This document shows positions 2,425 to 63,613 of a DNA stretch of 64,000 nt, piece after piece. A program made the position numbers and the translations under genes. Under the pieces are notes generated by a model that saw only the letters and a list, made by a program, of their open reading frames with translations, ran no database searches and was not told where the DNA came from. The DNA is taken from contig VMFS01000004.1 of NCBI GenBank assembly GCA_007376185.1, positions 165 through 64,164 of the forward strand. Reading direction: 5' to 3'. Source of the DNA: Parcubacteria group bacterium Gr01-1014_30 (GTDB taxonomy: Bacteria; Patescibacteriota; Minisyncoccia; Minisyncoccales; 2-12-FULL-40-12). Each line of letters opens with the position of its first letter. The stretch's first letter is position 1.

Positions 2425-3921
2425 ATGAATGTATTTATACTGTTGTTCACAGGCGTTTTGGCGTTGTTTGCGGGTTCAATTCTGGGTTACTTTGCAAGGC
2501 AGTCAATAGCCAAAAAACAAGTAGGTACTGTAGAAGAGCGGCTTCACAAAAAAATCTCGCAAGCCCAAAAAGAGGCTGAGACAATTTTAGAAGGAGCCCA
2601 GCAACAAGCTGGTCAAAGGCGCAAAGAACTTTTGGAAACGGAGAAAGTGCTCTTTAAAAGAGAGCGCATTTTAGATGATAAACTCTCGCAGTTTGAACTA
2701 AAAGAAAAGGAGTTTCAAAGACGCGTTGACCAGTTAAAGAAAATAAAGCAAGACCTGGAGGCTTCGCGCAAGGAAACCCAGCAAAAGCTGGAAAAAATCG
2801 GCAAATTATCTAAGGAAGAAGCGAGAAAAGAGATATCGGCTTTAGCTGAAAAAGATTACCAAAAGGATTTAACCGACCGTTTGAAAAAACTTGAGGCAGA
2901 GGGCTGGCAGAGATTTGAGAAAAAAGCCAGAGAGTTGACTGCCCTGGCAATACAAAAGGTTGCCGTTTCTCAGGCGCAGGAACTGACCACAACGACCGTG
3001 TCCTTGCCTTCAGAAGACATCAAAGGAAGAATCATCGGTAAAGAAGGCAGAAACATCAGGACTTTGGAGCGTTTGACCGGCGTGGAATTCGTGGTTGACG
3101 AAAGTCCGGAAGCGGTTCTGATTTCGGGCTTTGACCCGATAAGGAGGCAAATTGCGAAAATAGCTCTGCAAAAGCTCATTGCCGACGGCAGGATTCAGCC
3201 CTCGCGAATTGAAGAGCAGGTGGAGCAGGCGAAAGCCGAAATCAGCACTCAAATAAAGGAAGCCGGAGAAACAGCGGTTTATGAAGCCGGCCTCTTGAAC
3301 ATTGACCCAAAGCTTGTTCAATTGCTGGGGCGTTTGCGTTTCAGAACTAGCTACAGTCAGAATGTTTTGGCGCACTCCCTGGAAGTGGCTTTTTTGGCTG
3401 AGGCCTTGGCTCAAGAGCTGGGAGCTGACGCAAAAGTCGCCAAAAAGGCGGGTTTGCTGCACGACATAGGAAAATCAATAGACCGGCAGGTTGAGGGTTC
3501 GCACATTGACATCGGAATCAAAATTCTGGAAAAGTTTGGTGTGGAAAAAGAAGTTATCTCAGCCATGAAATCGCACCACGAAGATTATCCCTACGAAAGT
3601 TTGGAGGCTACAATTGTGCAGGCCGCCGACGCCATCTCGGCCTCGCGCCCCGGAGCCAGAAGGGACAATTTGGAAAATTATCTTAAACGGTTGAGCGACC
3701 TGGAAAATGTTGCCACTTCTTTCTCGGGAGTGGAAAAGGCCTATGCCATACAGGCCGGGCGCGAAATAAGGGTTTTTGTTAGACCCGAGGAAATTGACGA
3801 ATGGGCCGCAAAAAAAATGGCTCGCGACATCGCCGACAAAATTCAGGAAGAATTGAGGTACCCCGGAGAAATAAAAGTCACTCTAATTAGAGAGAGCAGA
3901 GTGGTGGAGTATGCTAAGTAA
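2425..3921 (+). CDS. rny: Ribonuclease Y
   Basis: 498 aa. N-terminal TM helix, coiled-coil region, KH domain (IKGRIIGKEGRNIRTLE) and HD domain (LAHSLEVA...LLHDIGK). Confidence 0.9.
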   Translation: MNVFILLFTGVLALFAGSILGYFARQSIAKKQVGTVEERLHKKISQAQKEAETILEGAQQQAGQRRKELLETEKVLFKRERILDDKLSQFELKEKEFQRRVDQLKKIKQDLEASRKETQQKLEKIGKLSKEEARKEISALAEKDYQKDLTDRLKKLEAEGWQRFEKKARELTALAIQKVAVSQAQELTTTTVSLPSEDIKGRIIGKEGRNIRTLERLTGVEFVVDESPEAVLISGFDPIRRQIAKIALQKLIADGRIQPSRIEEQVEQAKAEISTQIKEAGETAVYEAGLLNIDPKLVQLLGRLRFRTSYSQNVLAHSLEVAFLAEALAQELGADAKVAKKAGLLHDIGKSIDRQVEGSHIDIGIKILEKFGVEKEVISAMKSHHEDYPYESLEATIVQAADAISASRPGARRDNLENYLKRLSDLENVATSFSGVEKAYAIQAGREIRVFVRPEEIDEWAAKKMARDIADKIQEELRYPGEIKVTLIRESRVVEYAK

Positions 3922-3987
3922 AAATTACCCCGACCCCCAGCTTTAAAAACCCTCGGTTTTTAATATTTTCCGACACGGGGTAATTTT
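3921..3987. ncRNA. Copy A of a tRNA-associated structured element (could also act as a bidirectional terminator)
   Basis: 12-bp closing stem AAAATTACCCCG/CGGGGTAATTTT, conserved ACCCCCAGCTT, and an inner hairpin TTAAAAACC-ctc-GGTTTTTAA. Homologous to 4092-4182 and 62031-62191. Confidence 0.55.
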
Positions 3988-3988
3988 A

Positions 3989-4013
3989 AAGAATAGCCCT
4001 TTGGGCTATTCTT
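3989..4013 (-). terminator. Hairpin directly downstream of tRNA-Gly(UCC)
   Basis: AAGAATAGCCC-ttt-GGGCTATTCTT, an 11-bp stem, 3 nt after the tRNA 3' end on the minus strand. Confidence 0.5.
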
Positions 4014-4016
4014 GCG

Positions 4017-4090
4017 TGGAGCGGGCAACGGGATTTGCGCCCGTGCTTAAACCTTGGAAGGGTTTCGTGCTGCTGCTACACCATGCCCGC
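4017..4090 (-). tRNA. tRNA-Gly(UCC), CCA encoded, non-canonical D and T loops
   Basis: Minus strand reads GCGGGCA TG GTGT AGCAGCA GCAC G AAACC CTTCCAA GGTTT AAGC ACGGG CGCAAAT CCCGT TGCCCGC T CCA. The cloverleaf folds fully. The T-loop is CGCAAAT rather than TTCRANY, and the D-loop lacks GG. Confidence 0.85.
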
Positions 4091-4091
4091 A

Positions 4092-4182
4092 TAAAATCCC
4101 CCGACCCCCGGCTTAAGAAACCTTCGGTTTCTTACGTCAGTCGCTATCGCTCTTTCCTATTTTTCCAACACGGGGGATTTTA
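4092..4182 (-). ncRNA. Copy B of the tRNA-associated structured element (5' leader of tRNA-Gly)
   Basis: Closing stem TAAAATCCCCCG/CGGGGGATTTTA and inner hairpin TAAGAAACC-ttc-GGTTTCTTA. It ends 1 nt before tRNA-Gly position +1. Confidence 0.6.
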
Positions 4183-4211
4183 CTCCTCCGCTAAAGCTGC
4201 GGAGGGCAAGT

Positions 4212-4240
4212 CGGGGTGCCGAGATTTGAACTCGGGCTAA
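4212..4240 (-). other. tRNA 3'-half-like fragment (T-arm plus acceptor strand)
   Basis: Minus strand reads TTAGC CCGAG TTCAAAT CTCGG CACCCCG A. This is a perfect T-arm with a Pro-type acceptor 3' strand, but no matching complete 5' half is present. Confidence 0.5.
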
Positions 4241-4258
4241 ACCCCGCCCATTTTGCTT

Positions 4259-4331
4259 TCGGGGCACTCGGACTCGAACCGAGAATCAGACGCTCCCAAA
4301 GCGCCTATGTTAACCATTACACTATGCCCCG
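4259..4331 (-). tRNA. tRNA-Pro(UGG)
   Basis: Minus strand reads CGGGGCA TA GTGT AATGGTTA ACAT A GGCGC TTTGGGA GCGTC TGATT CTCGG TTCGAGT CCGAG TGCCCCG A. No CCA is encoded. Confidence 0.9.
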
Positions 4332-4344
4332 ATAATGGGCGGGG

Positions 4345-4370
4345 CTATGCTGCCATTACACCACACCCGC
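4345..4370 (-). other. tRNA 5'-half-like fragment (acceptor strand plus D-arm)
   Basis: Minus strand reads GCGGGTG TG GTGT AATGGCA GCAT. It resembles the 5' half of the Gly tRNAs in this window, but no anticodon arm follows. Confidence 0.45.
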
Positions 4371-4422
4371 AGTTAATAATCCCTAAACCTAAACCCTATA
4401 TCCTAAACTCTATCATAGTTTT

Positions 4423-4500
4423 CCCCGTAATACAACTTCGACTCGCTTCGCGATTACAGGATTTTCTAAAAGAAAATCCTGTCGAAGATGATATATGGGG
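4423..4500 (+). promoter_or_regulatory. Candidate cis-regulatory RNA, copy 1 (leader of the HK-RR-pilB operon)
   Basis: The ends CCCCGTAATACAACTTC ... GAAGATGATATATGGGG are conserved with 43049-43128. The outer stem has a G-U pair only on the plus strand. The second stem covaries: CTTCGAC/GTCGAAG here versus CTTCCA/TGGAAG in copy 2. Confidence 0.5.
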
Positions 4501-19972: not shown

Positions 19973-22249
19973 ATGGCAAAGCAAAAAGACCAAGGTGAAA
20001 AAAAAGAGTTGCAAGAGGCGGTGGACGAAATCAAGCAGCGCTTCGGCGAGGGAGCGATTATGAAGTTGAAGGAAGTGAGGGCCGTTGACGTTGATGCTAT
20101 ACCGACAGGTTCCATATCTTTGGACTTGGCTTTGGGAGTGCTCGGAATTCCAAGAGGCAGGGTGGTTGAGGTTTTTGGTCCAGAGTCAGCCGGCAAGACG
20201 AGTTTAGCCCTTCATATTATCGCAGAGGCGCAAAAGCAAGGCGGAGTCGGTGCTTTCGTTGATGCTGAACACGCCTTGGATCCTGACTATGCCAAGAAAA
20301 TTGGCGTTAACGTTGACGATTTGTTAATTTCCCAGCCCGACTCCGGGGAACAAGCCCTGCAGATTGTCGAGACCTTGGTGCGATCTGCCCAGGTCGACGT
20401 GATAGTGATTGACTCCGTGGCGGCTCTAGTGCCCAAAGCCGAGATAGAAGGAGAGGCCGGAGAATTTCAAATAGGATTGCAGGCGCGGTTGATGAGCCAA
20501 GCATGCCTAGCCGAAGATACTGAATTACTCGACCCTCTTTCAGGCCAAACTTCTTTGATTAAAGAGATTGTGGAAAAAAGATTACCTTGGCATACCTTAA
20601 CTTATAATACAAAGAAAAGAAAATTTATTATGTCGAGGGTGATAGACTGGCTTCCCCAAGGCGAGAGAAACTGTTTTGAAATAAAGACAAAAGATGGTCA
20701 TGTTGTAAATCTTACTGATGATCATTTAGTCCTCACTTTGGGCGGCTGGAAAGAAGTAAAAAATTTAACTTTAGAGGATTGTTTAACTATTCCCAGGAAA
20801 GTTTCCGATTTGCCACCTAAGTATTTGGGGAAGAAATTAACTGACGATGAAATTAAAATAATTGCCTATATTATTGGTGACGGCAGCTGTACCCACTACC
20901 AGCTTACATTTGCCAACGTCGATCCAGAAATAATCGGTGACCTTAACGCATCATTGGCGAGTTTAAACTGCGAGCTTTATAAGAAAAATTATAAGGCGTA
21001 TTCGATAAGAAAGAATAAAAATTTACCGCGGGGCTCTTATCGCTCTCCTGCAAAGGAACTATTAAGACGGCAAAGAGTTTATGGGAAGAAAGGCCCGGAA
21101 AAAGATATCCCCTCAAAGATTTTTAAGCTTTCCAAAGAGCAACTTTCAGTTTTTATTTCAAGACTTTGGTCCTGCGACGGGCATGTTGACTTATCAGCAA
21201 GGGCTATTATCTATTCTTCCACTTCTCTTGAATTAATAAAGCAACTACAGTTTTTATTGCTTCACTTTGGCATTGTCAGCAGATGGTCTCAGAAGAAAGG
21301 TTCCTTTCCCCGGCCTCATCCACTTTATAAATTAATCATTCAGGGGAGACAAAATATTCAAGTTTTTGCCAATGAAATTGGTTTGGTTGGTGTAAAAGAA
21401 AGAAAATTAAAAGAACTTGTAAATGCGGTATGGAAATCAAAAGTTATGCCCTTTCAGGAAGTTATTCCTTACCAGTTGGTCCCGACAATAAAAGAAGCGG
21501 TTTATATATCTGGCCATACGGGCCAAGAAATCTCGCATCTCTTGGGATTATATAACCGAACTTCTTTCCCTGAATTTAAACCTACTCGTTTGCGAATTTC
21601 TCGAGAACATTTAGAGAAGATTTCAAATTTCATTGGTAATAAAGGATTAAAAGAAGTTGCTGAAGAGGGAGTTTACTGGAGCAACATTATTTCAATTTCT
21701 CCTATCGGGAAAAGAAAAGTTTATGATTTAACGGTTGAAGACAGACCTAATTTTGTTGCTAATGGCGTAGTAGTACATAATTGTCGCAAACTGTCCGGCA
21801 TCATTGCCAAGACAAAAACCGTGGTCATTTTCCTGAATCAAACCAGAATGAAAATAGGAATGCTTTTTGGCAATCCCGAAACGACCCCCGGGGGGCTTGC
21901 TCTGAAGTTTTACGCCTCTGTCAGAATTGATTTGCGGAGGTTAGCTCAAATCAAAAAAGGGGATGAGATAGTTGGCAACAGAGTTAGAGCAAAAATTGTC
22001 AAAAATAAAGTGGCTCCGCCTTTCAAGACCGCCGAGTTTGACATTTATTACAACGAAGGCATTTCATATTTTGCCGACATTCTGAACACGGGGCTGAAAT
22101 TGGAGCTGATAAAAAAAGCCGGCTCTTGGCTTCAATATGAAAATACGAAACTGGGACAAGGCATGGAGGGAAGCAAGGCGTTTTTGAAAGAAAATTCTAA
22201 CGTAACTGAACAAATAAAAAAGGCGATAGTCGGAAAAACTATTTCGTAG
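19973..22249 (+). CDS. recA: Recombinase RecA, interrupted by an intein
   Basis: The exteins total 332 aa: Walker A GPESAGKT, ...[10 protein letters not shown] | intein | [38 protein letters not shown]... Confidence 0.93.
20504..21781 (+). mobile_element. RecA intein (426 aa) with a LAGLIDADG homing endonuclease domain
   Basis: Starts [10 protein letters not shown], block [17 protein letters not shown] motifs [11 protein letters not shown] and [12 protein letters not shown], ends VVVHN with a +1 Cys. Confidence 0.9.
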
Positions 22250-38746: not shown

Positions 38747-41700
38747 ATGCCTGATAAGGCTAACAAATTAAATACGGCGGTCGGCCAGATAAAGCCCAGA
38801 GAAATCACCCAGGAGATGCGCGAGTCCTACATTGACTACGCAATGTCGGTGATTGTTGCTCGCGCCCTGCCCGACGTCAGAGACGGCTTAAAGCCCGTTC
38901 ACCGCAGGATTTTGTACGCGATGCGCGAAATGGGGCTGACTCACTCTGCTAAATATAGGAAGTCAGCCACAGTTGTGGGAGAGTGTTTTGTTAAGGACAC
39001 ATTAGTGTTAACCAGTAAAGGATTGGTGCCGATTCAAGATGTTGATATTGGAGACCGAGTTTATACCCAAAGCGGGTTGAAAAAAGTAATTCAAGTTTAT
39101 GAAATGCCGGCAAGGCCGTTACTAAGGGTTTCTTTAGACAACGGAGTGTCAAATATAGTTACATACTCGCAAAAGTTCAAGGTTTTAACTGAGGATTGGA
39201 AATTTCAATGGAAGGAAGCAGAAGATTTATCCGCAAATGATTATCTTTTAATAAAAACAGAATACCCCAAAATAAAAAAACCGGCGTCCCTTCGTGGAAT
39301 AATAGATAAACAACCCGGATACTTTAACGAAGCCATTGCTTATTTTCTCGGTTTGTTTATTTCCGAGGGAGCAATATCGCGCGATTACAGCGCAAAGAAA
39401 CTCCCGCGAATATCCATTTTCAATAATGATTACAAAACGATTGCGGTGCTGGCTAAGATTCTTAGGCAGGAATTTGGCTATCAGCCCGCCATTGAGAGCA
39501 GGAGTTACAACTTTAACGGCGCTGACGGGAAAGCCGTTGTTGGAACGAAATATGCCATAAGAGTAAATAGAAAAGAGATAAATGATTTCTTTGTCTCTAA
39601 TTTCAGCATTGCTGACAAGTGGGCTTTGAATAAAGAAATTCCAAGCCAGATTTTTATATCTCCTGAAAAAGTGGCCTTCGCTTTTATAGGCGGTTTAATT
39701 GACGGCGATGGCTCCATACATAAAAAAAGAAATGTTATTCATTACGGCTCTATCTCCGAGAAGTTAATTCAGCAATTACAAGTTCTTCTTCAACATTACG
39801 GCATTTTTACGCATAGATACACCGACGCAGCTCTTAAAAGTCATTACATAGGTGGCCGAAGAGTTGTAAAACGTCACCAGTTTTATTATCTAGAGGCAAA
39901 AGGGGAAAATGCGTCCAGATTAGCTTCTCGGATTTACCTGGTCAATGAAGAAAAGCGCGAGCGGGCTGCAAGGTTAGCTAATAAAAAATTCACTAGCCAT
40001 GAGCGTAAAGGTTTGAATACATACGACTTAATTCCCTACGCCGGGAAAATGCTTTTTCAAGAATTGAGCCGAAATCACATCGGAAGCGGCTGGTACCGCG
40101 ATGACAGCGGGATTAAGTTTAGAATGGGGATAAAGTATCCAACAGGATGCAAGATAAGATACTCTTCCAATCTGCAAGAAAAGCCTTTACGTCGAAATCA
40201 AATAGTTGATTGGGGAATTAAGGAGAAACTTAGTAGAATAAAATCTCCGTTTTTCGCTTTTCTTAGCGATATCGTTGAAAATAAAATTTATTTCTCAAGA
40301 GTTGCCAAGATAGAGCCAGTTTCTCCGGAAATTACATACGATCTTGAGGTGGAGGACGACCACGAGTTTATCGCGAATGGCGTTATCTCTCATAACTGCC
40401 TCGGAAAATATCATCCCCACGGAGACCAGGCGGTTTATGACACTCTGGCAAGAATGGCGCAGGATTTTTCTTTGAGATATCCTTTAATTGACGGGCAGGG
40501 CAATTTCGGATCGATCGACGGGGATCCCCCAGCTGCCATGAGATACACTGAGGCAAAGCTATCCAAAGTCGGCGAGGAAATGTTAAAAGACATTGAGAAA
40601 GAAACCGTTGACTTTATTGACAACTACGACGGCACCAGAAAAGAGCCGACTGTTTTGCCAAGCCCTCTGCCCCAGCTTTTGCTCAATGGCTCTTTGGGGA
40701 TAGCGGTGGGCATGGCAACCAACATTCCTCCGCACAACTTAACTGAGGTTACAGACGCTCTGCTGCACTTGATAGACAACCCCAAAGCCGACACCGAAGA
40801 CCTTTTCAAGTTCATCAAAGGGCCCGATTTCCCAACAGCTGGCTCCATTTTTGACAAAAAAGAGATACTGGCGGCTTACACGCAGGGCAAAGGGCCTATT
40901 GTCACCCGAGGCAAAGCCGAAGTTATTGACGGAGAAAAAGGCAAAAATCAGATAATAATCACCGAAATCCCTTTTCAGGTGCAAAAGTCCTCCCTCATTG
41001 AGAAGTTCGCCAACTTGGTTCAGGAAAAAAAGATTGAAGGCGTAAAAGACATTAGAGACGAGTCGGACAAAGAAGGAATGAGAATCGTGCTTGAGCTCGC
41101 GAGAGAAGCCTACCCGCAAAAGGTTTTGAACCGGCTTTACAAGTTTTCCGATTTGCAAAGAACTTTCCACTTGAATATGCTGGCTCTTGTTGAAGGGCTT
41201 CAGCCCAAGGTGCTCAACTTGCCAGAATTGCTTACTTTTTTCATTGAGCACAGAAAAGAAGTCGTTTTCCGTAGAACAAAGTACGACCTTGATAAAGCCA
41301 AAGAAAGGGCTCACATTTTGGAAGGTTTAGCTATTGCTCTTTCAAAAATAGACGCTGTCATTTCAACCATCAAAAAGTCAAAAGACCGAGAGGACGCCAA
41401 AAACAACTTGATCAAGAAGTTCAAACTTACCGAAATTCAAGTCAACGCCATACTGGAGATTCGTCTGCAGCAGTTGGCTAAGCTTGAAAGGCAAAAAATT
41501 GAACAGGAATTAAGAGAGATTTTGGCAAAAATAAAAGAGTTAACGGCCATCTTGAAAAGCCCGCAAAAAATAAAAGACATCGTCAAAAAAGAACTCATTT
41601 CTTTGAAAGAAACTTTCGGCGGCCAAAGGAGAACCCGCGTGGTGGCTCAAAAAATAGGCGAAATAGCCGAAGAGGACCTGGTTCCTTTGGAAGAGACAAT

Positions 41701-42634
41701 CATAACCTTAACCCAGGGAGGCTACATCAAAAGAATTAACCCCAAGACCTACAAGATTCAAAAAAGAGGAGGCAAAGGAATTATGGGAATGAAAACCCTG
41801 CAAGACGACATTGTAGAGCACTTTTTGTCTTCTCAAACTCACGACAACCTCTTTTTCTTTACGGACTCTGGCAAAGTGTTCAAGACCCCGATTTACGAGA
41901 TACCGGAGGGTCAGAGAGTTGCAAGAGGCCGCGGGCTTTTGAACTTTTTGGAAATTTCGCCGCAAGATAAGATTTTATCTCTCTTAGCTTTGGGTAAGGA
42001 AGACAAGGACTCGGGCGTAAAATATCTAGTAATGGCAACCAGCCGCGGTATAATCAAAAAAACGGCTTTACCTGCTTTTGACAATGTTCGCCGCTCGGGT
42101 CTGATTGCCATAACTCTGAAAAAAGGCGATTTGCTGAGAAAGGTTCAAAAGAGCACGGGTTCTGACGAAATTATTTTGGTTACAAAAAAAGGCCAGGCAG
42201 TGCACTTCAAAGAGCAAAACGTCAGGGAAATGGGACGACAAGCATCTGGCATTAGAGGAATTCGTTTGAAGCCGGGCGACGAGGTGATGGGAATGGAAAT
42301 AGTTAAAACTACAAACTACAAACTACAAACTACAAACTACTTATTGGTGGTTATGGAAAACGGGTATGGCAAGCGCACCGCTTTGGACGAGTACCGGCTG
42401 CAGAGCAGAGGGGGTTCTGGCATCAAGACAGCGAATATAACTCCAAAAACAGGCCAAATTGTTTTTTCGCGCCTTTTGACAGGGGAGGAAGAAGATTTAA
42501 TCGTCATATCCCGAAAAGGCCAGGTTATCAGGACGGCTGTTGATACCATTCCCAAACTCGGCAGGTCAACCCAGGGTGTAAGAATTATGCGGTTGGAACC
42601 TAACGACAAGGTGGCGTCGGCCACTTGCATATGA
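38747..42634 (+). CDS. gyrA: DNA gyrase subunit A, interrupted by an intein
   Basis: The exteins total 824 aa: ...RKSATVVGE | intein | CLGKYHPHGDQAVYDTLARMAQDFSLRYPLIDGQGNFGS...AMRYTEAKL, plus the C-terminal beta-pinwheel repeats. Confidence 0.93.
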   Translation: MPDKANKLNTAVGQIKPREITQEMRESYIDYAMSVIVARALPDVRDGLKPVHRRILYAMREMGLTHSAKYRKSATVVGECFVKDTLVLTSKGLVPIQDVDIGDRVYTQSGLKKVIQVYEMPARPLLRVSLDNGVSNIVTYSQKFKVLTEDWKFQWKEAEDLSANDYLLIKTEYPKIKKPASLRGIIDKQPGYFNEAIAYFLGLFISEGAISRDYSAKKLPRISIFNNDYKTIAVLAKILRQEFGYQPAIESRSYNFNGADGKAVVGTKYAIRVNRKEINDFFVSNFSIADKWALNKEIPSQIFISPEKVAFAFIGGLIDGDGSIHKKRNVIHYGSISEKLIQQLQVLLQHYGIFTHRYTDAALKSHYIGGRRVVKRHQFYYLEAKGENASRLASRIYLVNEEKRERAARLANKKFTSHERKGLNTYDLIPYAGKMLFQELSRNHIGSGWYRDDSGIKFRMGIKYPTGCKIRYSSNLQEKPLRRNQIVDWGIKEKLSRIKSPFFAFLSDIVENKIYFSRVAKIEPVSPEITYDLEVEDDHEFIANGVISHNCLGKYHPHGDQAVYDTLARMAQDFSLRYPLIDGQGNFGSIDGDPPAAMRYTEAKLSKVGEEMLKDIEKETVDFIDNYDGTRKEPTVLPSPLPQLLLNGSLGIAVGMATNIPPHNLTEVTDALLHLIDNPKADTEDLFKFIKGPDFPTAGSIFDKKEILAAYTQGKGPIVTRGKAEVIDGEKGKNQIIITEIPFQVQKSSLIEKFANLVQEKKIEGVKDIRDESDKEGMRIVLELAREAYPQKVLNRLYKFSDLQRTFHLNMLALVEGLQPKVLNLPELLTFFIEHRKEVVFRRTKYDLDKAKERAHILEGLAIALSKIDAVISTIKKSKDREDAKNNLIKKFKLTEIQVNAILEIRLQQLAKLERQKIEQELREILAKIKELTAILKSPQKIKDIVKKELISLKETFGGQRRTRVVAQKIGEIAEEDLVPLEETIITLTQGGYIKRINPKTYKIQKRGGKGIMGMKTLQDDIVEHFLSSQTHDNLFFFTDSGKVFKTPIYEIPEGQRVARGRGLLNFLEISPQDKILSLLALGKEDKDSGVKYLVMATSRGIIKKTALPAFDNVRRSGLIAITLKKGDLLRKVQKSTGSDEIILVTKKGQAVHFKEQNVREMGRQASGIRGIRLKPGDEVMGMEIVKTTNYKLQTTNYLLVVMENGYGKRTALDEYRLQSRGGSGIKTANITPKTGQIVFSRLLTGEEEDLIVISRKGQVIRTAVDTIPKLGRSTQGVRIMRLEPNDKVASATCI
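38984..40396 (+). mobile_element. GyrA intein (471 aa) with a LAGLIDADG homing endonuclease domain
   Basis: Starts CFVKDTLVLT, LAGLIDADG motifs LGLFISEGAIS and FIGGLIDGDGSI, ends VISHN with a +1 Cys. Confidence 0.88.
42306..42340 (+). repeat. Perfect heptanucleotide tandem repeat (AAACTAC x5) inside the gyrA coding sequence
   Basis: Five exact 7-nt units, 35 nt in total, translated as KTTNYKLQTTNY in the GyrA C-terminal domain. Confidence 0.9.
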
Positions 42635-48216: not shown

Positions 48217-48291
48217 GGTCCCATCGTCTAGTCCGGTCTAGGACATTGGGTTTTCATCCCAAAAACACCGGTTCAAATCCGGTTGGGACCG
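48217..48291 (+). tRNA. tRNA-Glu(UUC)
   Basis: GGTCCCA TC GTCT...TTGGG TTTTCAT CCCAA...ACCGG TTCAAAT CCGGT TGGGACC G. Confidence 0.9.
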
Positions 48292-48292
48292 C

Positions 48293-48366
48293 GGGCCCAT
48301 AGTATAGTGGTAAAATGCCGCAATGGCATTGCGGAGTCGGGAGTTCGACTCTCCCTGGGTCCACCA
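48293..48366 (+). tRNA. tRNA-Ala(GGC), CCA encoded
   Basis: GGGCCCA...CCGCA ATGGCAT TGCGG...GGGAG TTCGACT CTCCC TGGGTCC A CCA, with the G3:U70 identity pair. It starts 1 nt after tRNA-Glu. Confidence 0.88.
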
Positions 48367-50361: not shown

Positions 50362-50649
50362 GCCGCGGTAGCTCAATGGTAGAGCGCGTCCCTAAAGAAC
50401 TGCTCTTTGGGGCCTTCTATAGAAATATAGATTGAATAACTGGGTTAACTCGGGGAAACTTCTTTTAGAGAACAATCCCGAGCCAAGTCCCGAGATTTTA
50501 ATCGAGGGAAAGGTGTAGAGACTATCCCGAAAGGGAGTACTCTGATAAAAGTCAGGGGAAACGCCCAGCATCCAATATTTCCGGATGGTGATATAGTCCA
50601 AAATAAACGGAAGAGGACGGCGTTGGGTGTTCGATTCACCCCCGCGGCA
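50362..50649 (+). tRNA. Intron-containing tRNA, read as tRNA-Phe(GAA)
   Basis: Exon 1 (50362-50393) is GCCGCGG TA GCTC AATGGTA GAGC G CGTCC CT. Exon 2 (50610-50649) is GAAGA GGACG GCGTT GGGTG TTCGATT CACCC CCGCGGC A. The spliced product is a normal 72-nt cloverleaf. Confidence 0.75.
50394..50609 (+). ncRNA. Group I intron (216 nt) in the anticodon loop
   Basis: In P1, CCCT|AAAG pairs with CTTTGGGG, giving a U-G wobble at the 5' splice site. P2 is TCTATA-GAAA-TATAGA. The core string AAAGGTGTAGAGACTA followed by TCCC-GAAA-GGGA resembles the Azoarcus/IC3 catalytic core. The intron ends in G. Confidence 0.75.
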
Positions 50650-50654
50650 CATTT

Positions 50655-59575: not shown

Positions 59576-59666
59576 TGGCGGAGAGGGTGGGATTCGAACC
59601 CACGTACCTCTTGCGAGGTTAATCGCTTTCGAGGCGATCCCGTTTTGACCACTTCGGTACCTCTCC
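59576..59666 (-). tRNA. tRNA-Ser(CGA), CCA encoded
   Basis: GGAGAGG...ATCGC CTCGAAA GCGAT, a long variable arm, and GTGGG TTCGAAT CCCAC CCTCTCC G CCA. Confidence 0.88.
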
Positions 59667-60710
59667 GTATTTGTTTGTAAAATACGCTTTAAATTTATTA
59701 AAATGTTTAGGGTTAGATGAGCCTATTTCTTGGAAGTACCTCATAATCTCGTTTTCTTTTCTAAGAAATACGCTGAATTCTGTTTTTTGGGTAGGGTGTA
59801 AACCGAGCCTTTCCAGACTATTTTTAAAAAAACTTAGAATCGGTAAAGATCTATTTGTGAAATTCATGCCGCAGTTCAGATAGATTTTATCCTTATTTCG
59901 GTGGTAGTGTTTGTCAACGTAGAAACACCCGTCGGTATCGAATAGTCCTCTTAAACAATCTTTTATGAATTTCTCCGTTTGTTTTATCCATACAGGAACA
60001 TCTACTTGTTGCTTAACTTTCCCCCCTATTTTTAATCCGTTTTCTACGAGAAACCTAACCAATTCTGTACGTGATATCACAACTGCGATAGTAGAATCGT
60101 TCTTCTTGCCGTAATAAACCGAGGGCGTAACTCTAAAAAGTTTTACGAAAAGAGCTTCAACGTATTCTGAGTACTCTTTATCGTCATACTTATTCAGTGT
60201 AACGGTAACCTGGCTTTTCGTAATACCGCCGTCACCCAAAAGAATACCTATTAGTTCTGCAAGTCTGGTCGAAAGGATGGGTCGTTTGATAGGCTTTGTA
60301 ATCCCGATGACCAGGTTTTTTCGATATCTTCCTTCGTTTTCCCACCATTCATACCACCTTTTTTTGCGATACTCTGGGTCACCTCCAATCCTTCCATATT
60401 TTCTCACAACTGCCATCCATCCCTTTTTTGCTCCTTTGTTAACGTACCAGAAAGGTTCTTTGATTTGTATGTTTTCCGGAAAGGGTATCTTTGCCCTCCT
60501 ACATATTCGCTCAAGAGCGGGTAATGACATCAGAACTTTTTCTCTTCTCCAATCAGTCAACGATCTCATATGTACCCCAGCAAGTTTGGCAAATTCTTTT
60601 AACCTTAAATTTAACCTAGTTTGAGCATCTTTAAGGAACTTACTTTGCTCGCCTTCGGGAAACGCAATCCGCTTAAAGTACCCGTATTTTTTCTTATTCA
60701 GCTCAGGCAT
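59619..60710 (-). CDS. Free-standing LAGLIDADG homing-endonuclease-like protein with an N-terminal HTH
   Basis: Motifs LIGILLGDGGI and LRGLFDTDGCF, with an N-terminal HTH-like LKEFAKLAGVHMRSLTDWRR. The last 48 nt overlap tRNA-Ser(CGA). Confidence 0.85.
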   Translation of the reverse strand: MPELNKKKYGYFKRIAFPEGEQSKFLKDAQTRLNLRLKEFAKLAGVHMRSLTDWRREKVLMSLPALERICRRAKIPFPENIQIKEPFWYVNKGAKKGWMAVVRKYGRIGGDPEYRKKRWYEWWENEGRYRKNLVIGITKPIKRPILSTRLAELIGILLGDGGITKSQVTVTLNKYDDKEYSEYVEALFVKLFRVTPSVYYGKKNDSTIAVVISRTELVRFLVENGLKIGGKVKQQVDVPVWIKQTEKFIKDCLRGLFDTDGCFYVDKHYHRNKDKIYLNCGMNFTNRSLPILSFFKNSLERLGLHPTQKTEFSVFLRKENEIMRYFQEIGSSNPKHFNKFKAYFTNKYGEVPKWSKRDRLESD

Positions 60711-60943: not shown

Positions 60944-61966
60944 TCATTTCTTCTCCTCTAACCGAACTTTGAGAGTTATCTCTTTTTTGTCGCGCAGGAC
61001 TTTCATTGATATTTCGTCGTTGATTTTGTATTTTTGCAAAATGTTGCCAAGCGGGTTTTCTTCGGTTATTTTTTCGCCGTTCAACTCTTCAATTATATCG
61101 TACTCTTTGAGCCCGGCTTTGTCGGCAGAAGACCTTGGCACCACCGCTCCTTCTCCCAAGCTCTCCCTTACAACCAAAGCTCCTTGGCTCAAGGGCAGTT
61201 TGTGAACTTTGGCTATTTCTTTGTTCAAGATAATATATCTGACTCCCAGAAAAGGCCTTTTTATTTTCCCGTATTTGACAACTTCTTCCAAGTCCCTCTT
61301 GGCGTAGTTTATTGGAATGGCAAAGCCGATGTTTTGAGCGCCCATAACCATTGCCGTGTTAATGCCTATGACTTTGCCGTCCATATCCACCAAAGGCCCT
61401 CCCGAGTTGCCGGGATTTATTGCCGCGTCAGTTTGAATAAGGCCTCGCAGTTGTGCCCCCTGTCCGTCAAGCCCAGAAAACGCCGTAATGGCTCGGCTCA
61501 TTCCCGAAATGATGCCCGAGCTGACCGTGTCGTGAAACTCGCCCAGAGCGTTGCCCACGGCCACCACTTCTTGGCCGAGTTCAATTTTATCCGAATCGCC
61601 GAGTTCCAAAAAAGGGAAACTCTTGTCTTTAATTTGCAAAATGGCGATGTCTGAAATTGGGTCTCTGGAAATCACTTTGGCCGGGTACTTTTTCGCGGGC
61701 TCCAAAACCACGGCGTAGTCGGCTTCCGTGTCGGCCACCACGTGCTGGCTGGTTAAAACGTAGCCGTCTTTAGAAACAATGAAGCCAGAACCTCCGCCCA
61801 CTTTTGTTTTTTCTTTTTGTTTGTCAAACTTGGGCACCACAAACTCCCTGCCGCCAAAAGGCATATAGTAAAAACCCTCCACTTTGGGCAGGTCTTTGGA
61901 AACCACAATCGTAATCACAGAAGGGCAAACCTTTTTGGCGATTTCAACTATTTGTGATTTTGGCAT
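60944..61966 (-). CDS. htrA: HtrA/DegP-family serine protease with a PDZ domain
   Basis: Catalytic triad context TSQHVV...DIAIL...GNSGGPL, and a C-terminal PDZ domain. The ATG at 61966 is preferred over the ORF-track TTG at 62002. Confidence 0.88.
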   Translation of the reverse strand: MPKSQIVEIAKKVCPSVITIVVSKDLPKVEGFYYMPFGGREFVVPKFDKQKEKTKVGGGSGFIVSKDGYVLTSQHVVADTEADYAVVLEPAKKYPAKVISRDPISDIAILQIKDKSFPFLELGDSDKIELGQEVVAVGNALGEFHDTVSSGIISGMSRAITAFSGLDGQGAQLRGLIQTDAAINPGNSGGPLVDMDGKVIGINTAMVMGAQNIGFAIPINYAKRDLEEVVKYGKIKRPFLGVRYIILNKEIAKVHKLPLSQGALVVRESLGEGAVVPRSSADKAGLKEYDIIEELNGEKITEENPLGNILQKYKINDEISMKVLRDKKEITLKVRLEEKK

Positions 61967-62030
61967 TTGGTTTATTTTATCAGTTTTAAGCGTTGTCAAC
62001 AAGCAAAAGTTTTGTTAGCATGTAAATGCT

Positions 62031-62191
62031 GAAAGTCCCCCGTGGTGCCTGCCTGCCGCAGGCAGGGAAAAATAGGAGCCCGGAGGGCGACGTAAGAGTC
62101 AGATGAAACAGAGTTTCATCTTCACCTTTGTTTTTGCTCCGCAAAAACTCGGTAACCGAAGGTTTCTTAAGCCGGTGGTCGGGGGACTTTC
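62031..62191 (+). ncRNA. Copy C of the tRNA-associated structured element (5' leader of tRNA-Arg)
   Basis: Closing stem GAAAGTCCCCCG/CGGGGGACTTTC. The conserved blocks AAAAATAGGA, GACGTAAGA and ACCGAAGGTTTCTTAAGCCGG are shared with the reverse complement of 4092-4182. Extra inserted hairpins are present. It ends 1 nt before tRNA-Arg +1. Confidence 0.6.
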
Positions 62192-62192
62192 T

Positions 62193-62269
62193 GCCCTCGT
62201 AGCTCAATGGATTAGAGCAGTCCCGTCCTAAGGGAAAGATTGGGGGTTCGAGTCCTCCCGAGGGCACCA
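62193..62269 (+). tRNA. tRNA-Arg(CCU), CCA encoded
   Basis: GCCCTCG TA GCTC AATGGATTA GAGC A GTCCC GTCCTAA GGGAA AGATT GGGGG TTCGAGT CCTCC CGAGGGC A CCA. Confidence 0.85.
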
Positions 62270-62402
62270 GAAAGGAAAAATCAAGCGGTTTTGGTTCGCC
62301 TCGCTTCGCTCGGCGACTCATTCGTATTGGATTTTCGGGGCAAAAACGAATTGGCGGTTTCGTTTGGGGGAAAGAAAATTTTTAATTCTGAATTTTAATA
62401 AA

Positions 62403-62816
62403 ATGGAAAACCAAATCAAAAACCAATTAATGCCTGACGAAAAGATTATTTGGGAAGGAAAACCAGATAAAAAATCTTTCCTTTTTATGGGGCCCTCTTG
62501 GTTCATTATTCCCTTCACTTTTTTGTGGTTTGGGTTTGCGCTATTTTGGGAAATAACAGCCTGGGCAAGCGGCGCACCTGTCTTCTTTTTGCTTTTTGGT
62601 GGATTATTTGTTGCCATGGGTTTTTATATTACGATTGGTAGATTTTTTGTCGCCAGTAGAGAATACGATAATCTCTATTATGTTCTTACAGATAAACGAG
62701 CTGTTATCCAACAAGGTATTTCTAATCTCGAGTTCCAGTCTGTTGATTTGAAAAAACTTAGCGACATTGAACTTCATTTCAAGTCTTTAACATCTTTGAA
62801 GGTATTCTCTCGATAG
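62403..62816 (+). pseudogene. PH-domain (bPH_2/YdbS-like) membrane protein, with a 3' end apparently replaced by the IS insertion
   Basis: MENQIKNQLMPDEKIIWEGKPD, two TM helices, and YYVLTDKRAVIQQG. The reading frame then runs into the IS end and stops at 62816. Confidence 0.5.
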
Positions 62817-63613
62817 AATTTCTTCTCATCTTCCCTGTGGCTTCTCTCCACGGCATCATTCTGAGCCGGTTTACCGGGATCGATCAGGTAGTGGATAATA
62901 CCTTGCTCAGCGCAAAACTTGTCCAAAGAATGTATCGTCTTCACCGTCATATCACTTCTTTTATTGGAACCCGTGTAGTAGTTGGTAAACGTGGAATGGT
63001 TATCCGTCTTAATGGCACGGACGCGATGGGGGAAAATCCCCAGCACTTCTTTCAGGAACAGTATTGAACGATAATTGGCCTGCTCATCATACACGGCCAT
63101 ATATCTCCATCTGGAAGCCGTATCAATGGCGGTATATCGGTAATATTGGCGTCTGGCAGCAGGTCCAGGCACGTATTTAACGTCTATCTCGATTAATTCA
63201 CCCGGCCTCCTCTCAGCTCTGATATATTTGTATTTGATTCTTTTAACCCTGTACTTACGGACCAGGCCCTCTTTCTTCAATATTTTGCCAATGGTTCGGG
63301 CGTGGATCTTAATACCTTCTTTCTCCAATTGCCAATGTATCTTCAGGGCGCATTTCTTTGTTTTCTCCCTGATCTCGACAACACGCTCTTTAAGCCAGAT
63401 CGGGGTTTCTACTCTGTAGGTTTTTGGTTCTGTGGATTTAGGCTCAAGGCCGGCTTCGCCATGCTTTCTGTATTCAGATACCCACCTTTCTAAACTCCTC
63501 TTGCCATAGGGACACACTCTTGCCGCATCAACCAGTTTGATCTCCTTATTGATTATCGGGAGCACCCACCTTAAACGCTCCTCTTTGATTGTTTTAGCCA
63601 TACATATTGCCAT
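62774..63613 (-). CDS. IS481-like DDE transposase (HTH plus rve integrase core)
   Basis: 279 aa. IDVKYVP...YTAIDTASRW...DNHSTFTN...PGKPAQNDAVERSHRE, with a GGAGAA SD. Confidence 0.85.
   Translation of the reverse strand: MAICMAKTIKEERLRWVLPIINKEIKLVDAARVCPYGKRSLERWVSEYRKHGEAGLEPKSTEPKTYRVETPIWLKERVVEIREKTKKCALKIHWQLEKEGIKIHARTIGKILKKEGLVRKYRVKRIKYKYIRAERRPGELIEIDVKYVPGPAARRQYYRYTAIDTASRWRYMAVYDEQANYRSILFLKEVLGIFPHRVRAIKTDNHSTFTNYYTGSNKRSDMTVKTIHSLDKFCAEQGIIHYLIDPGKPAQNDAVERSHREDEKKFYRENTFKDVKDLK

Follow-up and report, generated by a model that had tools for sequence, protein, structure and literature searches.

A 64-kb stretch of DNA (below, the window) from a metagenome-assembled genome (MAG) of Parcubacteria group bacterium Gr01-1014_30 carries three copies, here called A, B, and C, of a short structured element that belongs to a real, widespread, and previously undescribed family of the Patescibacteria. 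The best explanation, to which we give slightly better than even chances, is that the element is a small, non-autonomous, Patescibacteria-specific mobile element encoding a structured RNA that is co-transcribed with tRNAs and released from them by RNase P. We hold with high confidence that it is mobile and that its structure is selected in a single strand; that RNA is the strand that matters, and that RNase P would release B and C, we hold with moderate confidence. The element is probably selfish rather than useful to its host.

A conserved, covarying fold in a Patescibacteria family

The three copies in the window are as follows, P1 denoting the closing stem and P3 the inner hairpin.

Copy A: 3987 to 3921 (3921..3987), minus strand; 67 nt, short form with a 12-bp P1, without P2, and with P3 UUAAAAACC/GGUUUUUAA
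Copy B: 4182 to 4092 (4092..4182), minus strand; 91 nt, long form with a 12-bp P1, a P2 hairpin with a G.A-containing internal loop, and P3 UAAGAAACC/GGUUUCUUA
Copy C: 62031..62191, plus strand; 161 nt, expanded long form in which P2 is GCCC-GGA-GGGC

A preceding sequence-only reading had placed three related elements at these coordinates, and all three were found there with the perfect 12-bp closing stems that it described (AAAATTACCCCG/CGGGGTAATTTT, TAAAATCCCCCG/CGGGGGATTTTA, and GAAAGTCCCCCG/CGGGGGACTTTC). The inner five pairs of the stem, CCCCG/CGGGG, are constant while the outer seven are specific to each copy, and inverted repeats of the type CCCCG...CGGGG with at least four extra paired bases occur in the 64-kb window only in A, B, and C. 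The conserved block CCGACCMCCRGCTT likewise has exactly three perfect matches in the window, one in each copy; two further matches with at most two mismatches (24234 and 34888) both lie in coding sequence and are not copies. Between A and B the inner hairpin differs by two compensated pairs, TTAAAAACC/GGTTTTTAA versus TAAGAAACC/GGTTTCTTA, again as described. Absent from the earlier description is that the 5' arm of this hairpin is interrupted in copy C, where a 57-nt insert separates TAAGA from AACC. Copy C can be read as the common core with extra hairpins, namely 19 nt in J1/2 after CCCCCGUGGUG and the 57 nt within the 5' arm of P3. Single-sequence folds of both strands recovered the closing stem and the inner hairpin, with z-scores of -2.9 to -6.7.

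A covariance model (CM) was trained on 22 copies from other genomes and used for a filter-free search of the window, where it found copy B with 89 bits (E ~1e-22) and copy A with 74 bits (E ~1e-17). Because of the large inserts of copy C, only its core segment was matched (22 bits). No further copies were found in the 64-kb window by motif, inverted-repeat, or filter-free CM searches. The view that the element corresponds to no known Rfam family, with tRNA-like, ribozyme, RtT, RNase P, and SRP families among those compared, was upheld: at the gathering threshold the whole window yielded tRNAs and one group I intron, nothing on the copies, and permissive scans with Rfam 15 (E<=10; 3850-4450, 61950-62400, and L058:2000-2400, where handles of this kind denote loci in other sequences) gave only chance matches far below threshold.

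The additional copies that the sequence-only reading had proposed to look for in related genomes do exist. When the 19-base core pattern GTTTNTNAAGCNGGNGGTCGGGG was searched in 185,579 species genomes (GTDB, one genome per species), 24 loci were obtained, of which 22 are complete elements, all in MAGs of Patescibacteria (Azam-, Jorgensen-, Staskawicz-, and Wildermuthbacteria and the Parcubacteria group); the remaining two, in Nitrospira and Thermodesulfobacteriota, lack the 5' half and are chance matches. A looser two-part pattern returned 71 loci from Joint Genome Institute (JGI) metagenomes, about 47 of which were confirmed by the CM. After pooling and de-replication, 64 distinct copies with genomic context were available, and wherever they can be attributed they belong to Patescibacteria. 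The density of the element is low, with three copies in the window and one or two strict matches per species genome. A phage or plasmid origin was rejected, as IMG/VR held no true match (two pattern matches are due to chance, one of them overlapping a tRNA-Asn) and the element was not found in INPHARED or PLSDB; the T-loop box GGTTCTAGCGAAGCGGA, which is discussed below, was not found in IMG/VR either. A full-text search of the literature found no description of the element.

Read in the sense of the tRNAs, the consensus runs P1 (12 bp), J1/2, P2, ACG, P3, J3/1, and P1' (the 3' strand of the closing stem). P1 combines the conserved inner CCCCG/CGGGG with a variable, A/U-rich outer part of 7 bp. 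The consensus of J1/2 is UGnnGGAAAA(A)UAGGA and that of J3/1 is AGCYGGGGGU; two purine-rich junction strands, UGnnGGAAAAUAGGA and the latter, are near-invariant. P2 is missing in the 67-nt short form, its commonest version is a GCGAAGC mini-hairpin, and longer versions contain tandem G.A pairs. P3 has the consensus UAAGAAACC-loop-GGUUUCUUA, and most copies possess an additional hairpin, P0, just 5' of P1. The size of the element varies from 67 to 161 nt through hairpins added in J1/2, P2, the P3 arm, or the P3 loop.

All three helices covary. The P2 mini-hairpin exchanges G-C for A-U to give ACGAAGU, and P3 is found in at least five compensated versions (UUAAAAACC/GGUUUUUAA, UAAGAAACC/GGUUUCUUA, UUAGGAACC/GGUUCCUAA, UAAGAGGGC/GCCCUCUUA, and UCGGAAACC/GGUGUCCGA). 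Over 67 distinct aligned copies, which are mutually related and whose alignment was fitted to the model, standard pairs occupy 98.0% of cells, compared with 82.8% for shuffled partners and 40-59% for slid partners; double-sided changes occur in 18 of the 23 pairs, and none of 500 shuffles reached the observed value on any of five measures. P1 and P3 were also predicted independently by RNAalifold on a MAFFT alignment. Upstream of tRNA-Trp, orthologous copies are distinguished by one compensated pair of P1 (AAUUUUA/UAAAAUU in L037 and L083 versus AGUUUUA/UAAAACU in L091), and complementarity has therefore been kept after insertion. The cores of short forms can be identical in unrelated contexts (copy A, L004, and L092), where the outer part of P1 differs with compensation.

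An alternative pairing of J1/2 (nnGGAAA) with the 3' strand of P3 (UUUCUnn) is suggested but not established: it is compensated in the second L006 copy, the second L049 copy, and L054, its register is shifted in L034 and in one L018 copy, and it amounts to only 5 bp in most copies. A pairing of the 'nn' of UGnnGG with the Y of AGCY, hinted at by the minimum-free-energy fold of copy A, was discarded because it does not covary.

tRNA edges, empty sites, and insertion footprints

The element has a clear preference for the edges of tRNA genes. Sixteen of the 64 copies (B, C, and 14 others) lie 1-9 nt 5' of a same-sense tRNA, with ten different isoacceptors represented and a U commonly at position -1 in copies just 5' of tRNA +1. 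For about 13 copies a same-sense tRNA is located 52-77 nt upstream, and only three adjoin an antisense tRNA, which makes 29 same-sense versus 3 antisense cases in total, and some 25 copies have no tRNA nearby. Relative to flanking open reading frames (ORFs), 21 copies are co-oriented and nine are antisense to both neighbors.

Presence/absence polymorphism was seen when the loci of relatives were retrieved through RNase Y homologs (70-83% identical). L101 keeps the order rny, tRNA-Gly, tRNA-Pro, HisKA and lacks the element. The B site is empty in L103 and L024, where tRNA-Pro and tRNA-Gly are 8 nt apart, and the A site is empty in L101, L102, and L104, where a terminator hairpin equivalent to the one beside copy A stands alone between the rny stop codon and tRNA-Gly. 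A diverged copy occupies the B site in L046, with a different P0 and P1 and a replaced 3' arm of P3. In a Met-Met-Asp operon the element lies in sense between Met and Asp in L074 and L079 versus antisense between both Met genes in L010, and in L018 two copies are nested within a third. At the B site of L101, the tRNA-Pro/tRNA-Gly spacer holds an HNH endonuclease-like ORF (2985-3340, minus strand), and behind the intact tRNA-Gly comes a 3' fragment of a tRNA-Gly-like gene (2830-2900). Mobile DNA seems to have a hotspot in this spacer.

Direct repeats of the target stand on both sides of the insert at 15 loci, with lengths of 13, 14, 18, 19, 20, 22, 27, 34, 40, and 86 nt; most copies, including A, B, and C, have no flanking repeat of at least 10 nt. 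Where the target is a tRNA 3' end, the repeat starts at G57 of the T loop, as for Leu in L004 (34 nt, of which 15 nt are trailer), Arg in L005, L015, and L056, Ser in L029 and L058, and Lys in L055. Other targets include gene ends, namely the terminal codons of rpsI (L007) and of one more gene (L082), and gene starts, namely the first codons of a yebC-like gene (L041, L075, and L017). The unit forms tandem arrays in L089 and L077. The start of the repeat is present once more as an inverted copy of 5-14 nt that adjoins the element on its 5' side and at several loci spans the uninterrupted target junction; this inverted copy forms P0 with the upstream repeat and extends P1 with the downstream repeat. 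Insertions of the tRNA class have a split downstream T-loop copy, GGUUC-UAG-hairpin-CG-GARUCC, and in one lineage GAGAACC replaces UCGAACC on the opposing strand, giving tandem G.A pairs in what is probably, by analogy, a kink-turn-like arrangement. The long, variable repeats together with the inverted copy suggest a replicative or template-switching insertion. Snap-back of a nascent strand was rejected as the sole source of the inverted copy, as a linker of 3-5 nt is left uncopied and the inverted copy spans the uninterrupted junction.

An unrelated insert of 45-55 nt is found in the same kind of socket, GGCGAGAACCT ... TTCGAGTCC followed by the acceptor 3' strand, in L022 (1590-1700) and upstream of the element in L071. 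The element family is therefore not alone in having the arrangement of duplicated and inverted tRNA 3' ends.

The immediate surroundings of the copies in the window comprise the following features.

tRNA-Gly(UCC): 4017..4090, minus strand; called by ARAGORN and Rfam, 5' end at 4090
tRNA-Arg(CCU): 62193..62269, plus strand; called by ARAGORN and Rfam, 5' end at 62193
Perfect hairpin AAGAATAGCCC-AAA-GGGCTATTCTT: 3989..4013; between tRNA-Gly and copy A, in the P0 position
P0 hairpin of copy B: 4185..4205, minus strand; CCTCCGC-AGCTTTA-GCGGAGG in tRNA sense, 2 nt 5' of P1
Promoter-like site: 61993..62021, plus strand; TTGTCA, 17 nt, TAGCAT with TGn before the -10 box, a match to consensus only (9/12 positions, extended -10 TG)
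Short hairpin AGCAT-GTAA-ATGCT: 62017..62030, plus strand; abuts copy C in the P0 position and overlaps the -10 box

Given the tRNA 5' ends at 4090 and 62193, B and C each stop 1 nt before tRNA +1, in agreement with the sequence-only reading. That reading had also put copy A directly after the stop codon of rny (the RNase Y gene); A begins on the final base of this codon (3919-3921). Copy A sits between this stop codon and the hairpin at 3989..4013 downstream of tRNA-Gly, which looks like a bidirectional terminator. Copy B fills the spacer between the tRNA-Pro cluster and tRNA-Gly, and a joint fold of its P0, B itself, and tRNA-Gly resolves into three mutually independent domains, P1 and +1 being separated by a single U. 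The promoter-like site upstream of copy C ends at 62021, 9 nt before the element, and the transcription start is therefore predicted at about the first base of C. A second promoter-like site (4516-4488, minus strand) lies upstream of the tRNA-Pro/B/tRNA-Gly/A cluster. Two further ideas were discarded: spacing and hexamers, judged by eye, are unsuitable for a promoter inside the element that would serve the downstream tRNA, and a small ORF is unlikely, as the AGGAG of J1/2 has no start codon after it and the short form has no AGGAG.

A side observation concerns the region behind copy C. At 62293-62325 (plus strand), 25 nt after tRNA-Arg(CCU), lies a split T-loop-like box, GGTTC-GCCTCGCTTCGCTCGGC-GACTC, whose insert, on the minus strand, forms a hairpin of GCGAAGC type that contains tandem G.A pairs. 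Resembling the T-loop boxes that flank the element elsewhere, it may be a relic; GCGAAGC hairpins and split T-loop boxes are not enriched above chance in the window.

Explanations for the element

Under the favored explanation, the element folds as a single strand into a three-helix junction (P1, P2, P3) and lands preferentially at tRNA gene edges, where it lies either 1-9 nt 5' of +1 or next to a tRNA 3' end that is duplicated from the T loop onward, as well as beside gene ends and terminators. Copy B would be transcribed as the spacer of a tRNA-Pro/tRNA-Gly operon, and copy C from its first base as the entire 5' leader of tRNA-Arg(CCU). Cleavage by RNase P at +1 would then free both as discrete RNAs whose two ends are buried in the 12-bp helix. 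Copy A would represent a third insertion, of the short form, flanked by the rny stop codon and the terminator. For copies linked to tRNAs, B and C among them, a function as RNA in tRNA sense is plausible. Of the three roles that the sequence-only reading had suggested (a structured tRNA leader, a processing or insulator module, or a mobile hairpin), the last fits best with the empty sites, the nesting, and the target duplications.

Several points weigh against this explanation. The covariation counts include related copies and hence do not represent independent events. The nine copies that are antisense to both flanking ORFs, some of them inside operons (L049), mean that an RNA-sense function cannot hold for every copy, and the evidence for the strand is weak: in P1 (pairs 2-12) and P3, G.U outnumber A.C mismatches by about 15 to 6, a bias toward the tRNA-sense strand. 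The target duplications, variable in length and accompanied by an inverted copy, match no well-known bacterial transposition mechanism, and the term 'mobile' thus rests on outcomes rather than on a known pathway. Among the 20 window ORFs scanned, none for a transposase, integrase, or reverse transcriptase could be linked to the element. Finally, a 12-bp stem ending at -2 could hinder rather than help the bacterial RNase P, considering how the enzyme recognizes leaders (PMC7897497).

The only transposase found in that scan belongs to the rve family (DDE) and carries HTH domains (62774-63613, minus strand, ~500 nt downstream of tRNA-Arg(CCU)). The element was considered as a MITE (miniature inverted-repeat transposable element) of this neighbor and rejected, as the two have no inverted repeat or end similarity in common.

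The most serious rival, which we nevertheless regard as unlikely, is a palindromic repeat that acts at the level of DNA (of REP/BIME, MITE, or attC type), in which the fold would be the single-stranded DNA site of a recombinase or HUH transposase and the transcript would be incidental. It accounts for copies in both orientations to local transcription (the bias of 21 to 9 is equally explicable by the replication strand), for target duplications and nesting, and for clusters of decayed copies. A semi-conserved A/T palindrome, (C)AAATTTT-loop-AAAATTT(G), abuts P1 in the manner of a protein-binding site, and the G.U bias is compatible with a DNA hairpin, in which G.T wobbles are tolerated. At some loci the 5' flank is complementary to the target next to the foot of the hairpin, which recalls the pairing between guide and cleavage site at the ends of IS200/IS605 elements. 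The inference of an RNA-level function that the sequence-only reading drew from covariation holds only in part: a conserved, covarying fold absent from Rfam does exist, but the covariation of the closing stem is no proof of selection on RNA rather than on single-stranded DNA. Against a purely DNA-level repeat, however, the conserved part is a three-way junction with long, invariant, non-complementary purine-rich strands and not a simple palindrome; P2 and P3 covary independently, tandem G.A motifs are present, and size changes through added hairpins, as is usual for structured RNAs. The polarity relative to tRNAs (29 to 3) points the same way, and RAYT and TnpA genes were not seen in the vicinity of any copy, although no systematic search for them was made.

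Less probable still is an RNA-mediated mobile element, i.e., a bacterial counterpart of short interspersed nuclear elements (SINEs) or a guide-like RNA. Master copies 5' of tRNAs would be cut from the precursors by RNase P to give a hairpin-closed RNA with a defined 3' end, which template switching or an RNA-dependent enzyme would copy or join at new targets (tRNA +1, the T loop, or gene ends), leaving the triplet of direct target repeat, short inverted target copy, and element. In a variant of this scheme the conserved junction would be catalytic, either self-cleaving or self-ligating.

A vertically inherited tRNA precursor module that benefits the host, by insulating folding, protecting the 5' end, or tuning processing by RNase P, RNase Y, or RNase J, appears improbable. 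The placement of B, C, and 14 others at 1-9 nt before tRNA +1 with a common U at -1, the start of copy C at the predicted transcription start, the independent folding of element and tRNA, and the persistence of same-site copies upstream of tRNA-Trp and tRNA-Asp in several diverged genomes with compensated stems would all be expected of such a module. The same sites are, however, empty in close relatives, only two of the 15 ARAGORN-called tRNAs of the window carry the element, copy A and about 25 others are not followed by a tRNA, some copies lie beside antisense tRNAs or antisense in operons, and nested and decayed copies exist. A position between a promoter or upstream tRNA and the +1 of a same-sense tRNA is occupied by B, C, and 14 others and not by copy A and about 45 others; such a leader or spacer position is thus a trait of some copies and not one that marks the family. 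What survives of the proposed structured tRNA 5' leader is thus its recurrent placement 5' of tRNA +1 and the position of C, not its standing as the defining property of the family. A conserved role as a leader or processing module is contradicted by the absence of A and B from the relatives' locus, the copies without a tRNA, the nesting, and the target duplications.

The weakest candidate, which we consider very unlikely, is that the copies are attL/attR remnants of integrase islands entering the tRNA T loop, the element being part of the attP arm of a minimal unit mobilized in trans. The T-loop crossover is a known class of integrase site, and in about 13 loci an intact tRNA is followed by a hairpin, an antisense T arm, the element, and GGTTC-UAG-hairpin-CG-GARTCC plus the acceptor 3' strand, with direct repeats of 18-34 nt starting at G57 and with tandem arrays in the two loci named above; yet the repeats match whichever sequence is local (tRNAs for Leu, Arg, Ser, Lys, and Ile, elsewhere the ends of protein genes) and therefore cannot be explained by an attP that the element carries, no integrase lies next to any copy inspected, A, B, and C have no flanking repeats, and the phage, plasmid, and IMG/VR collections yielded nothing.

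Implications and comparison with known systems

The genomes of Patescibacteria are tiny and leave little room for selfish DNA, and yet the 64-kb window alone holds inteins, a group I intron, a transposase, and the three copies of the element. A family that spreads over many lineages of the candidate phyla radiation (CPR) and homes to tRNA edges would constitute a new class of RNA-like mobile elements in bacteria. Such a family would explain the duplications of tRNA 3' fragments and the odd tRNA gene arrangements that confuse the annotation of CPR genomes, as well as the presence of a structured leader right against the RNase P cleavage site. If the intermediate were indeed RNA, an unrecognized bacterial pathway of retro-mobility or RNA-guided insertion would be indicated. 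The Infernal model can be used for the annotation of CPR MAGs.

Other features of the window were recorded along the way. RecA (19973-22249, plus strand) and GyrA (38747-42634, plus strand) each contain an intein with a LAGLIDADG homing-endonuclease domain (Pfam Intein_splicing and LAGLIDADG_3), and a free-standing LAGLIDADG-domain ORF (59619-60710, minus strand) overlaps with its 3' end the annotated tRNA-Ser(CGA) region. At 4211-4370 (minus strand) a complete tRNA-Pro(TGG) gene (4259-4331), of the type found in L103, lies inside a second, disrupted tRNA-Pro. The halves of the latter (4370-4334 and 4252-4211) represent the ortholog of the L101/L024 tRNA-Pro, of the CGGGGTG...CACCCCGA type, with a 13-bp inverted repeat, AGCCCCGCCCATT/AATGGGCGGGGTT, that encloses the intact gene and stands in place of the anticodon arm. 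The genes for tRNA-Glu(UUC) and tRNA-Ala(GGC) at 48217-48366 (plus strand) abut with zero spacer (48292/48293). At 50363-50650 (plus strand) the group I intron identified by Rfam (50384-50609) interrupts a tRNA missed by ARAGORN; the exons, GCCGCGG...CGTCC-CU and GAAGA-GGACG...CCGCGGCA, make up a tRNA-Phe(GAA) with the intron after U33, a site that appears to differ from the 35/36 site of the introns that interrupt tRNA-Asn and tRNA-Asp of Patescibacteria (PMC13011429).

Such group I introns in Patescibacteria tRNA genes are structured selfish RNAs of the same phylum (PMC13011429). The element differs from them in lying outside the mature tRNA and in being three times smaller, and it has no group I core and no Rfam match. 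An intrinsic terminator is a plain GC-rich hairpin with a short loop, ahead of a U tract, and the element does not correspond to one, as P1 closes a branched domain of 43-137 nt; a terminator scan of the copies returned only a fragment of copy A (plus strand) and an internal hairpin of C (minus strand). In a comparison with the att sites of tRNA islands, which bear an integrase and carry at both ends a direct repeat of one particular tRNA 3' segment, direct repeats of the tRNA 3' end flank units of ~170 nt, the repeats are those of the local tRNA or gene, and no integrase is adjacent.

The Correia elements of Neisseria, ERIC, REP sequences with their mosaic form BIME, and MITEs, small structured repeats whose co-transcripts are processed, are, like the element, short, non-coding, multi-copy, and intergenic, with inverted repeats at their ends that give a long stem in transcripts and with presence/absence polymorphism. 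The terminal stem of the element is, in contrast, variable in sequence yet complementary, its interior is a conserved three-way junction, its target copies measure 13-86 nt and are accompanied by an inverted copy instead of the fixed 2-10 bp of the others, and its preference for tRNA edges is strong and polar. A parent insertion sequence (IS) was not identified when the rve transposase of the window was compared. MITEs possess terminal repeats in common with a parent IS and a short target duplication of fixed length, whereas the P1 arms differ among the copies and the repeats measure 13-86 nt or are absent at the 10-nt level; long, variable repeats with an inverted copy do not match the short, fixed duplications of DDE transposons. 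REP/BIME sequences are imperfect palindromes of 20-40 nt that have a conserved 5' tetranucleotide, a high copy number, and a RAYT gene in their genome, whereas the element is 67-161 nt long, branched, and low in copy number.

Integron attC sites are similar to the element in their single-strand hairpins, variable length (~57-141 nt for attC), conserved stem-proximal boxes, variable complementary arms, bulged bases, and variable terminal structure. The attC R''/R' consensus RYYYAAC/GTTRRRY is absent from the element, whose stem bases are NAAATYACCCCG...CGGGGTRATTTN; GAAC...GTTC occurs only in the subset with T-arm copies. In addition, the center of the element is conserved and not variable, and cassette ORFs, an array, and an integron integrase context are lacking.

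By analogy, the nearest known architecture is that of the tyrT operon of E. coli, whose 178-bp repeats give rise to RtT RNA (RF00391). These repeats are likewise non-coding, located distal to or between tRNA genes, and co-transcribed with them; each contains the 3'-terminal ~19 nt of tRNA-Tyr, and they are arranged in tandem and processed to RtT RNA, a layout that recurs in L004, L058, and L089. The RtT model gives the best Rfam score on the element, but this score, obtained on L058, is a mere 13.7 bits where the gathering score is 45; in sequence and structure there is no homology, and the likeness is one of analogy. Whereas RtT is confined to a single enterobacterial operon, the element is dispersed, lies at many tRNAs and at the ends of protein genes, and possesses a closed three-helix fold of its own.

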